Of a stretch of 12,941 bases of DNA, positions 3,933-11,571 are shown piece after piece. The notes under the pieces are model-generated. The model saw only the letters and a list, made by a program, of their open reading frames with translations. It was not told the origin of the DNA and made no database searches. Origin of the DNA: an uncultured candidate division Zixibacteria bacterium (GTDB lineage Bacteria; Zixibacteria; MSB-5A5; UBA10806); contig CAWFQL010000008.1 of assembly GCA_963817915.1 (NCBI GenBank), forward strand, positions 1 through 12,941, written 5' to 3'. Positions within the stretch are counted from its first letter, which is position 1; every line of letters starts with the position of its first letter. Made by a program: the position numbers and the translations under genes.

Positions 3933-4409
3933 TTATCCTCTGGGGTGAAGCTCGTTTTCTTCATTTTTAATATCATCGAAGTCCTTCAATCTTAATCTGA
4001 ATAATTGATAATGAATCAGCGATATTGCTACAAAAAGAAATAGCATCTCAAATTTATTGCCAAGGAGTACAATGACCAATCCGTAAGTCGAGATTGCCAT
4101 TGCGAATGCCGCCATGATAACGCTTATCGTGTTTAGTTTGATTTCAGGACTATTTGACTGCGTGGTTTTCGATAATTTGGCCATTAGCGATTTCCGAACA
4201 AAAAAAGCTGCAGGAAATTCCGAAAGAGCGACAAGAAATATCACTTCCGTTAACAAATCGAGCTTAAACCCTTCTTGAGAAATACGCTCCTGAGTCACCA
4301 AATACCCTATAGCGGCCATTACTATGGCACTTCCCAGCACCATCATCAGCGAAATCAGCGAAAGCCTCGAGATAGTTTCCACTTTTTGCTGTTCGGAATT
4401 GAATTTCAT
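3933..4409 (-). CDS. Hypothetical integral membrane protein (~4 TM helices)
   Basis: Four hydrophobic segments. Its start overlaps the tadA stop (ATGA) and its stop lies 4 nt before the lipoprotein ATG, consistent with an operon. Confidence 0.75.
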   Translation of the reverse strand: MKFNSEQQKVETISRLSLISLMMVLGSAIVMAAIGYLVTQERISQEGFKLDLLTEVIFLVALSEFPAAFFVRKSLMAKLSKTTQSNSPEIKLNTISVIMAAFAMAISTYGLVIVLLGNKFEMLFLFVAISLIHYQLFRLRLKDFDDIKNEENELHPRG

Positions 4410-4888
4410 TTATTTTCTCTCCTCTTAGTCTTGAAAAATTCCTGCATTATGGCGGCGCATTCCGGTTCCATTATTGATTCGGTCACCATTATTTGATGAT
4501 TCAGCTTCTTTTCGGCAGGGATATTAAATATCGATCCGCAAGCTCCGAATTTTGGATCCCGCGCTCCGAAGACCAAGCGTCCGACTCGCGCCAGTACCAA
4601 CGCGCCGCAACACATGGCGCAAGGCTCGATAGTTGAATATACCGTACAATCTATCAGCCTCCAGGATTGCAAATTCTCTGAAGCGGCTGTAATCGCCAAT
4701 ATCTCCGCGTGCGCCGTGGCATCCTGCAATCCTTCAGTGCGGTTATGCCCTCTGCCAATTAATATATTATCGTGTACGATTACGCATCCAACAGGTACTT
4801 CGCCTTTCGCGAACGCCTTTTTTGCCTCTCTTAAGGCTTCACGCATGAATCTTTCGTCTGTTTCGGGAAAGCCCAATTCAAATTCCAT
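4406..4888 (-). CDS. tadA: tRNA adenosine(34) deaminase
   Basis: DERFMREAL, GEVPVG, HN...DATAHAE (HxE), TIEPCAMC (PCxxC), ARDPKFGACGS, LNH and FF..KR. The ATG is at 4888, with an in-frame TTG at 4891. Confidence 0.95.
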   Translation of the reverse strand: MEFELGFPETDERFMREALREAKKAFAKGEVPVGCVIVHDNILIGRGHNRTEGLQDATAHAEILAITAASENLQSWRLIDCTVYSTIEPCAMCCGALVLARVGRLVFGARDPKFGACGSIFNIPAEKKLNHQIMVTESIMEPECAAIMQEFFKTKRRENK

Positions 4889-4939
4889 CAACCTATTTTA
4901 CATTCGGATGCCCAAAAATCAAATCTTTTATTTTGGCCT

Positions 4940-8407: not shown

Positions 8408-8434
8408 GTAGGGGCGAGGTCACCTCGCCCCTAC
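8408..8434. repeat. GTAG-family REP-like palindrome
   Basis: GTAGGGGCGAGG-TCA-CCTCGCCCCTAC: a perfect 12-bp inverted repeat bounded by GTAG/CTAC, starting 14 nt after the frameshift-corrected metalloprotease stop. Confidence 0.8.
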
Positions 8435-10097: not shown

Positions 10098-10139
10098 TAT
10101 TATATTTATGTGCAATCATGAACCCCCCTCAAAAGAAAA

Positions 10140-10213
<74 letters not shown>

Positions 10214-10437
10214 AAGGACTTGGCCGCCAAATCGGCAGACCTGAAATTGTAAAAGAACATCACCCCCCAAACCGCATTAAACAGGAAATCCCCCATTTTC
10301 GCAAGCGAATTCTGATAGATTGCCACCCCTCAATGAAGTAGGGCGGAACCCCTGCGGTTCCGCCGACTTCGGGAAAATGAAAAGAAGTCCGAACCACGGG
10401 GGTTCGGACCTACCAAGCTACAACGCCATTTCCTCCA

Positions 10438-10467
10438 TTGACAAACCACCAAAATCCATTATATAGT
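10438..10467 (+). promoter_or_regulatory. Sigma70-like promoter, copy 1
   Basis: TTGACA (10438-10443), N18, TATAGT (10462-10467). Confidence 0.55.
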
Positions 10468-10568
10468 TTGTAGGCGGAACCCCTGCGGTTCCGCCGACTT
10501 CGGGAAAATGAAAAGAAGTCCGAACCACGGGGGTTCGGACCTACCAAGCTACAACGCCATTTCCCCCA

Positions 10569-10598
10569 TTGACAAACCACAAAAATCCATTATATAGT
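10569..10598 (+). promoter_or_regulatory. Sigma70-like promoter, copy 2
   Basis: TTGACA (10569-10574), N18, TATAGT (10593-10598). Confidence 0.55.
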
Positions 10599-10700
10599 TT
10601 GTAGGGCGGAACCCCTGCGGTTCCGCCGACTTCGGGAAAATGAAAAGAAGTCCGAACCACGGGGGTTCGGACCTACCAAGCTACAACGCCATTTCCCCCA

Positions 10701-10730
10701 TTGACAAACCCCCGAAATCCATTATATAGT
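10701..10730 (+). promoter_or_regulatory. Sigma70-like promoter, copy 3; the likely native promoter of the Reeler/T9SS gene
   Basis: TTGACA (10701-10706), N18, TATAGT (10725-10730), ~50 nt upstream of the start codon. Confidence 0.65.
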
Positions 10731-10779
10731 AATAGCGATATTTATGATTTAGAATGGTAAATGCGATCAAGGAGTAATG

Positions 10780-11571
10780 ATGAAAAATGGTACTAAAATC
10801 TTCGGAACAATACTTATTGTCCTGCTAACTACCTCGTTGGCGTTCGGCCATGCGAGCTATACCGGATATTCCGGCGCGCCCGGCACCAGAGGCGCCTGCG
10901 CAGGCCAATGCCATGGATCCAACGGCGGCACAATCCAGGTTAGCGGATTCCCGACTCAATACATATCCGGCCAGGCCTATACGATAACCATATCCCATAA
11001 TGGCGGCACCACTATCAGGCAATTCAATGGCAGCTGCCGAATCGGCACAGGTTCGCAAAATGCCGGCGTTATTGCCGCAGGCACGAGAACCTCGATCTAC
11101 AGCGCTACCGGCGAAACCAATGGTGTGAAGTTGACATCCACCAATCAGAATGACGGCACCTTTTCATGGACCGCCCCGGCCTCGGGCAGTGGCGATGTCA
11201 AATTATATATCTCGGGATTGCAAGGTAATTACAGCGGCCTGAATACAGAACTGGTGTTGACCTCGTCCGAGCAGACAACAGGCATAGACGAGTTGGTCCA
11301 AAATCCATCCAATCTCAGCATTCTCTCTAATTATCCTAATCCATTCAACGCTGTCACTACTATATATTTCTCGACATCAACCGCGGGCCCGGCCAGCCTG
11401 AATATCTATAATCTCGTAGGACAAAAAGTTGCTTCATTATATGAAGGCAATATAAGCACGGGCGAGCACTATATTCATTGGGACGCCAACAAGTATCCCA
11501 GCGGCGTCTATTTCTGCAGACTCGCGCTCAATGGCCAGACAATTACCCGTCAATTGACTCTTCTGAAATAG
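10780..11571 (+). CDS. Secreted Reeler-like (choice-of-anchor V-type) protein with a T9SS type A C-terminal sorting domain
   Basis: AAGGAG RBS (ATG 10780 is better spaced than 10777) and a signal peptide ending AFG. SGAPG...CAGQCH, PTQYISGQAYTITI and FSWTAPASGSGDVKLY. C-terminal domain NYPNPFN...IYNLVGQKV...WDA...SGVYF...LTLLK. Confidence 0.85.
   Translation: MKNGTKIFGTILIVLLTTSLAFGHASYTGYSGAPGTRGACAGQCHGSNGGTIQVSGFPTQYISGQAYTITISHNGGTTIRQFNGSCRIGTGSQNAGVIAAGTRTSIYSATGETNGVKLTSTNQNDGTFSWTAPASGSGDVKLYISGLQGNYSGLNTELVLTSSEQTTGIDELVQNPSNLSILSNYPNPFNAVTTIYFSTSTAGPASLNIYNLVGQKVASLYEGNISTGEHYIHWDANKYPSGVYFCRLALNGQTITRQLTLLK

Follow-up and report, generated by a model that had tools for sequence, protein, structure and literature searches.

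Tandem clusters composed of a REPIN and its flank are already known. In Pseudomonas fluorescens SBW25, nearly identical REPINs occur in tandem "including the flanking sequences", as stated in the relevant passage of Bertels and Rainey (2011, PMC3116915), and tandem REPINs of up to five repeats are described in a 2011 review, according to which no mechanism for them had been put forward (PMC3337134). Other GTAG REP families also form tandem REPINs with flanking DNA, and for arrays that flank EPS (surface-polysaccharide) genes in Thauera a modulation of expression was speculated upon in the corresponding part of that work (Di Nocera et al. 2013, PMC3733652). BIMEs are often present as consecutive tandem copies, and TnpA-REP cuts at CT or CA near the hairpin under the guidance of GTAG, according to the portion of Corneloup et al. 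that deals with these elements (2021, PMC8266576).

The stretch of DNA analyzed in this study (the window) is an entire contig of 12,941 bp, referred to here as C8, of a 22-contig, 3.33-Mb MAG that is 93.9% complete with 2.7% contamination. Tandem Repeats Finder detected an array at 10338-10730 (period 131, 3.0 copies, 97% matches, score 751), and a repeat search of the window gave three in-register copies with spacings of 131 and 132 and identities of 100, 98, and 94% to the reference copy. The units are arranged head to tail, are 130 to 132 bp long, and begin with GTAG at 10338, 10470, and 10601. Each consists of a 76-nt inverted doublet of REPs (75 nt in unit 2, owing to the absence of one G) and a flank of approximately 55 nt, and every flank contains TTGACA-N18-TATAGT, which matches 11 of 12 consensus positions with a -35/-10 spacer within the 16-18 nt range of sigma-70. 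The features of the array and of its immediate neighbors are as follows.

10139..10214, minus strand: tRNA-Arg(ACG), found by ARAGORN and matched by the Rfam tRNA family at 64 bits; divergent left neighbor of the array
10338..10413, plus strand: REPIN copy 1, in which a GCGG-type and a TCCG-type GTAG REP form an inverted pair, their GTAG ends outermost
10414..10469, plus strand: flank copy 1, with the promoter-like site P1 (TTGACA at 10438-10443, TATAGT at 10462-10467) and the junction TT
10470..10544, plus strand: REPIN copy 2, without one G after GTAGG
10545..10600, plus strand: flank copy 2, with the promoter-like site P2 at 10569-10598 and the junction TT
10601..10676, plus strand: REPIN copy 3, the third inverted doublet
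10677..10730, plus strand: flank copy 3, with P3 at 10701-10730, probably the native promoter of the gene to the right; runs into unique DNA
10385..10411, 10516-10542, and 10648-10674, minus strand: terminator-like hairpin plus T-run, formed by the inward-read TCCG-type REP, after which comes CTTTTCATTTT
10780..11571, plus strand: downstream gene, 263 aa, with a signal-peptide-like N-terminus, a choice-of-anchor V domain, and a T9SS type A sorting domain

The doublet begins with GTAGG, which is followed by hairpin A (GGCGGAACC...GGTTCCGCC), a 22-nt A-rich spacer, hairpin B (GTCCGAACC...GGTTCGGAC), and CCTAC. When folded as single-stranded DNA, it takes the form of two 9-bp hairpins at -21.8 kcal/mol (z = -4.2), and 0 of 200 shuffles equaled this value. 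Two bases, TT, separate the -10 box of units 1 and 2 from the GTAG of the unit that comes after; unit 3 continues into unique DNA and then into AAGGAG (10769-10774) and the ATG at 10780. The initial annotation, made from the sequence alone, had described three tandem units of ~132 bp, each with an inverted REP doublet and TTGACA-N18-TATAGT, and a TT-GTAG junction after the -10 box in units 1 and 2; both searches and the sequence itself agree with that description. Two further readings of the repeats were dropped: a CRISPR-like one, because the "spacers" are near-identical copies, and an att-site one, because the tRNA end turned toward the array is the 5' one.

Four substitutions and one indel distinguish the three units, and the combination of variants is distinct for each unit. 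All four substitutions are located in the 55-nt flank, one just 5' of the -35 box and three in the spacer, and none in the hexamers or in the REPIN. By our own arithmetic, the chance of all four falling in the flank is (55/131)^4 = 0.03, and the chance of four flank substitutions sparing the hexamers is (43/55)^4 = ~0.37. REPINs free of substitutions may hint at conversion, or at constraint or selection on the REPINs, which plain neutral decay does not predict. The intact hexamers fit selection on the promoter, but a p of ~0.37 says nothing about it.

The array resembles the SBW25 clusters of 2-5 units in the head-to-tail repetition of a REPIN plus its flank and in the presence of several clusters per genome, as these are set out in the pertinent sections of the two accounts (PMC3116915, PMC3337134), and also in having a RAYT that is encoded elsewhere and flanked by matching REPs. 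On the other hand, compared with what those sections report, the host is a Zixibacteria-like MAG and not a proteobacterium, the REP singlets number ~52 versus 1,422 in SBW25, and the copied flank at C8 holds a complete, consensus-grade promoter-like site. The C8 units abut directly, whereas those of SBW25 are separated by short unique DNA according to the legend of Figure S7 (PMC3116915). The GTAG tag, the 9-bp stem, and the "HH" dimers with the GTAG ends outside are shared with the GTAG families as Di Nocera et al. characterize them in the sections concerned; the promoter idea in those sections refers to the repeats themselves, whereas the promoter at C8 belongs to the co-amplified flank (PMC3733652). 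The linkers of E. coli BIMEs are short family-specific motifs, whereas the C8 linker is unique neighboring DNA, and the REP hairpins of C8 are perfect, whereas a bulge is required in those of E. coli. The initial annotation had implied a greater novelty than is warranted, since tandem REPINs with flanking DNA are on record in the passages cited above (PMC3116915, PMC3733652). A limited literature search returned no report of a REPIN cluster with a complete promoter as the repeated flank, and the modest novelty of the locus is the promoter as a passenger.

The two halves of the unit differ in their distribution, as had been predicted for separate searches with the doublet and with the promoter half. 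The 76-nt doublet gave 26 to 30 BLAST matches across the genome, whereas the 55-nt flank is confined to this locus within the 3.33-Mb genome, where the best match beyond it covers 19 nt (E = 0.11). A pattern search of the genome found 52 GTAG-tagged REP singlets on 10 contigs, all of which consist of GTAGG, a 9-bp stem, and a 5-nt loop; 39 of them are intergenic by crude ORF calls, and the remaining 13 are mostly in short ORFs called across arrays. Approximately 20 inverted doublets of 70-85 nt are formed from these REPs, always by a GCGG-type and a TCCG/CCCG-type REP with the GTAG ends outside. The hairpin pair of the array is thus a genuine dispersed GTAG REPIN. Two REP subtypes alternate in inverse orientation, as in the BIMEs of E. 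coli, where the inversely alternating subtypes are the Y and Z REPs. The 52 REPs share no dinucleotide on the 5' side of GTAG that could mark a target or cleavage site; the internal junctions of C8 and of an array on contig C16 are both TTGTAGG, although these are two cases only. Matches to the REP family were found in 0 of 13 genomes of the same family, and 2 of 10 genomes of the sister family gave partial single-REP matches and nothing fuller. Judged from these sequence comparisons, the family is nearly restricted to this genome. Another REP family is represented in the window by a GTAG-tagged perfect palindrome (GTAGGGGCG...CGCCCCTAC) at 8408-8434, between the Met-zincin and PLD-like genes, which shows a sub-threshold match to the Rfam family "Termite-leu" (E = 0.77).

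No Y1 transposase gene was found among the 13 ORFs of the window by the Pfam scan, and none of the eight Y1_Tnp (PF01797) matches in the genome is on C8, so the earlier statement that the window lacks a RAYT gene stands. A RAYT gene flanked by REPs of the array's family, for which a genome search had been suggested, is present on another contig, at C17:582892-583404. Its product scores 132 bits against NF047646, the NCBIfam model of the REP-associated tyrosine transposase (cut-off 80), and aligns over residues 3-154 with TnpA-REP of the E. coli REPtron (PDB 4ER8, E = 1.3e-20); the H-W-H and Y-W-D-H motifs are visible. A single REP of the C8 family lies 59 nt upstream of the gene (582807), and a doublet lies 2 nt downstream (583406-583474). 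The closest relatives of this RAYT are mostly in MAGs titled Candidatus Zixiibacteriota, and GTAG-tagged perfect hairpins were found at 50 of 79 loci of such relatives, mostly at the gene borders, versus 25 of 200 random 2.9-kb control segments. The C8 doublet belongs to a REPIN/RAYT system, and the C17 RAYT would be the enzyme that cleaves or mobilizes its REPs.

The best Y1_Tnp match in the genome is an IS200-like TnpA (C3:57499-57927, 98 bits) that has its own end hairpins and apparently interrupts another gene. The downstream part of the interrupted gene terminates in a T9SS sorting tail, and its stop codon is followed by a REPIN. Five to six further Y1/RAYT-like ORFs, including a truncated one, have flanking palindromes that belong to a different family in each case, and they are located at the following positions.

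C16:408754-409233: Y1/RAYT-like ORF
C21:21173-21637: Y1/RAYT-like ORF
C21:25025-25291: Y1/RAYT-like ORF
C17:65932-66483: Y1/RAYT-like ORF
C4:11224-11691: Y1/RAYT-like ORF
C16:227854-228393: Y1/RAYT-like ORF

Several of the palindrome families of these other RAYTs also occur in tandem, for example at C3:73335-73830 (123 bp, four copies) and C17:67796-68079 (122 bp, 2.3 copies).

The C8 family forms two more arrays in this genome. At C16:413283-413899 (207 bp, three copies), between rsmG (Pfam GidB, 133 bits) and a parA-like gene, the unit consists of a REPIN of the C8 family together with the last 35 codons and the stop codon of rsmG, so that two orphan rsmG 3' ends follow the real one. The crude ORF caller placed a phantom ORF of 111 aa across this array. 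At C11:71268-72536 (318 bp, four copies), a REPIN of the same family is accompanied by ~45 nt on one side and by ~190 nt with other palindromes on the opposite side, and the unit boundary is not at the REPIN edge. Neither of these sister arrays has a promoter-like site in each unit; the scan gave one 9/12 site within the rsmG part on C16 and none on C11. The copying of an rsmG 3' end in one case and of promoter-less hairpins in the other indicates that the amplification takes whatever adjoins the REPIN, blind to its function. Among the eight non-coding tandem arrays of the genome (period at least 40, at least 90% matches, no open frame), six contain perfect hairpins of at least 8 bp, which points to duplication of a REP plus its flank as the usual source of non-coding tandem repeats in this genome. 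In the C8 and C16 arrays, two cases only, the terminator-like side of the REPIN (the TCCG-type REP plus T-run) opposes the local direction of gene transcription, and read-through is possible. A different kind of tandem array is found at C16:333683-334673 (322 bp, 3.1 copies), where every unit opens with a copy of the 3' portion of the neighboring tRNA-Met gene (334647-334720, minus strand) and has a minus-strand ORF of ~126 aa. Recurrent integration at tRNA-Met, or some other duplication process, may underlie this array.

On C8, the array is situated between two genes that are transcribed away from it. The first GTAG is 123 nt from the 5' end of tRNA-Arg(ACG), which was the only Rfam match in the window to pass; a sub-threshold match to Plastid-ycf2 is the same tRNA read on the opposite strand. 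In the 123 nt upstream of the tRNA (10215-10337, minus strand), no near-consensus promoter was found, and the best site is TTGCGA-N17-TTTAAT (9/12), which lies 61 nt upstream. A minus-strand promoter for the tRNA within the array was considered and rejected: the TATAAT there (the complement of ATTATA) has no usable -35, and the promoter scan gave no minus-strand site. The three minus-strand terminator-like REP hairpins are placed just beyond the upstream region of the tRNA. A TadA-like tRNA adenosine deaminase gene (4406-4891, minus strand) shares the contig with its expected substrate, tRNA-Arg(ACG), which is probably a coincidence.

The initial annotation had P3 face a Reeler/T9SS gene. The orientation and the T9SS assignment are correct; the product scores above the cut-off of the T9SS type A sorting domain and at 48.7 bits against the NCBIfam model "choice-of-anchor V" (cut-off 42), whereas Reeler, at 20 bits, is below its cut-off of 21. 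The gene likely starts at the ATG at 10780, five bases past AAGGAG, which on sequence grounds is preferred to 10777, and it is followed by a Wzz/GNVR chain-length-determinant-like gene.

The promoter statistics were computed on our own crude ORF-based gene calls (2,827 ORFs, 86.6% coding). Upstream of ORFs, TTGACA is enriched 3.25-fold and CTTGAC 3.9-fold. Following intergenic TTGACA (n = 521), TAnnnT occurs in 15.5% of cases at a spacer of 16 and in 18.6% at a spacer of 17, compared with 1-2.5% in coding DNA; at a spacer of 18, the frequency is 5.4%, which is near the off-spacer background. Intergenic DNA (446 kb) contains 138 sites of at least 11/12 and coding DNA (2,889 kb) 94, a density ~9.5-fold higher in the former. 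When only spacers of 18 are considered, there are 23 intergenic and 22 coding sites (~6.8-fold; 5.9-fold if the three sites of the array are left out). These enrichments indicate that the genome uses E. coli-like TTGACA/TAnnnT promoters. Many of its tRNA genes also have a 10-12/12 promoter site 10-25 nt before the mature 5' end.

The end of P3 is 49 nt from the ATG at 10780. P3 is a credible promoter, and probably the native one, of the choice-of-anchor V gene, with an 18-nt spacer that is not the one preferred in this genome (16-17). Among 11 orthologues of the downstream gene, the best of which is 62% identical and none of which is from the same genus, six have one TTGAnn-N15-19-TAnnnT site, at a distance of 57-123 nt upstream of where the protein match begins, and no REP-doublet matches were present on the orthologue contigs of those genomes. 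In metagenome contigs, the exact 25-nt flank pattern gave 0 matches, and relatives of the downstream protein show 27-49% identity over the best segments, which is too distant for a promoter comparison.

The features described above are best explained by a local triplication of one REPIN plus its flank, with the promoter as an incidental passenger, an account to which we assign a probability of roughly 0.7. The three C8 doublets are identical except for one G, and their identity to any other doublet in the genome is at most 88%, which argues for local duplication of one REPIN and not for three insertions. The starting state that we infer would be a single GTAG-type REPIN between tRNA-Arg and the promoter of the gene for a T9SS-sorted surface protein; such a hairpin element would be non-autonomous, with a RAYT from another locus of the genome acting on it. 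This REPIN and ~55 bp to its right would then have undergone local head-to-tail duplication, which brought the number of units to three. In the first event, the right edge of the flank would have been joined to the left edge of the REPIN, and the third copy could be explained by a later unequal exchange between units. A REPIN-REPIN crossover is excluded for the first duplication, because the array ends in a copy of the flank and has one REPIN per unit. A plain crossover between the flanks also fails to give the junction, since the internal junctions read TATAGT-TT-GTAGG and both outer flanks read AA at the corresponding place. In 1990, Shyamala et al. reportedly observed REP sequences at the joints of tandem duplications of the Salmonella chromosome. 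The C8 array is similar in having REPs at the joins; the Salmonella duplications, unlike the 131-bp unit of C8, are large and extend between distant REPs.

Because the copied flank holds a putative sigma-70-type promoter, the duplication would have resulted in three near-identical promoters (P1 to P3) in series, with a REPIN between each pair. P3, which is nearest to the gene, would be the working promoter. If P1 and P2 fire, their transcripts would begin at the base of the REP hairpin that follows, within or just after GTAG, and would read through to the gene. There is no plus-strand terminator-like site within 10338-10730, and all three such sites are on the minus strand; transcripts from P1 and P2 would therefore pass P2 and P3 into the gene. 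RNA starting at 10473 is predicted to form a hairpin at nucleotides 1-23. The proposal in the initial annotation that REP-linked amplification had captured the promoter of the neighboring gene is the best reading of these data, given the local-duplication pattern, the unique flank, and the use of this promoter type by the genome. The multiplication of the promoter is probably incidental and would be neutral, and the array most likely arose as a side effect of the way in which REPINs are known to cluster in tandem as "REPIN plus flank", and not as a selected device.

A promoter array of this kind could instead have been selected as an amplifier or dial, in which the promoters add up, or the 5' REP hairpin stabilizes the transcripts of P1 and P2, and unequal recombination tunes expression. 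Consistent with such a function, both hexamers are intact in three copies while the spacer and upstream bases vary, the path from P1 to the gene is free of plus-strand terminators, consensus-grade sites are strongly enriched in intergenic DNA, and the RNA from 10473 folds with its hairpin at the very 5' end; work on E. coli ompA is said to have shown that 5' stem-loops stabilize mRNA. However, the hexamer conservation is not significant (p ~0.37), the 18-nt spacer is suboptimal in this genome, and upstream promoters can interfere with downstream ones. The sister arrays, moreover, amplify a gene 3' end and promoter-less DNA, so that promoter function is not needed for amplification, and selection for it at C8 appears unlikely. 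A broader form of the same idea, a copy-number-variable module in which the units add promoters, the mRNA is capped and stabilized by structure, the T9SS protein is tuned by recombination, and the minus-strand terminators insulate tRNA-Arg, seems rather improbable to us; if true, it would make the locus a contingency-type locus built by the RAYT/REPIN system in an uncultured phylum. The initial annotation had also offered an array of self-transcribed structured RNAs of ~130 nt, with each promoter driving one REPIN RNA. The predicted start at the foot of the next REPIN suits this suggestion, and the region folds better than its shuffles (z = -5.0), but such a z-score is expected of any REPIN. 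No plus-strand terminator-like site within 10338-10730 would end such RNAs, no Rfam family matched the array at an E of 1 or better, and such a promoter is absent beside the remaining ~17 doublets of the family, all of which renders an RNA array highly improbable.

The number of units might also be an artifact of assembly, in which a repeat cycle or strain variants in the MAG were unrolled to three copies from fewer true units. The 22-contig MAG (93.9% complete, 2.7% contamination) and the small size of the contig, only 12,941 bp, leave some room for such an error. The assembled TATAGT-TT-GTAGG junction requires that at least two units exist, and the combination of variants specific to each unit (four substitutions and one indel overall), as expected of distinct copies, argues for three. 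In addition, arrays of 3-4 units with the same architecture are present on two large contigs of 454 kb and 304 kb, and the REP family ties C8 to the rest of the genome; a miscounted array is accordingly quite improbable. Some small repeat elements carry promoters, as do the Correia elements of Neisseria, and the unit could by analogy be a composite mobile element, that is, a longer REPIN variant with an outward promoter that was inserted three times. This explanation is disfavored and scarcely credible, since the 55-nt half is found at this locus only, copy 3 continues unbroken into the gene leader, and the doublets are identical to each other and at most 88% identical to other copies.

Under the local triplication of a REPIN plus its flank, the locus is a clean natural example of REPIN-associated local duplication that multiplies a regulatory element, and versions with one, two, or three promoter units offer a concrete test case for the effects of REPIN clusters on expression. 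As seen at rsmG, such arrays are also a hazard for annotation, because they can create phantom ORFs and pseudo 3' ends. The locus and its genomic context document a complete REPIN/RAYT system, together with several REP families and RAYT-like genes, in a Zixibacteria-like genome.
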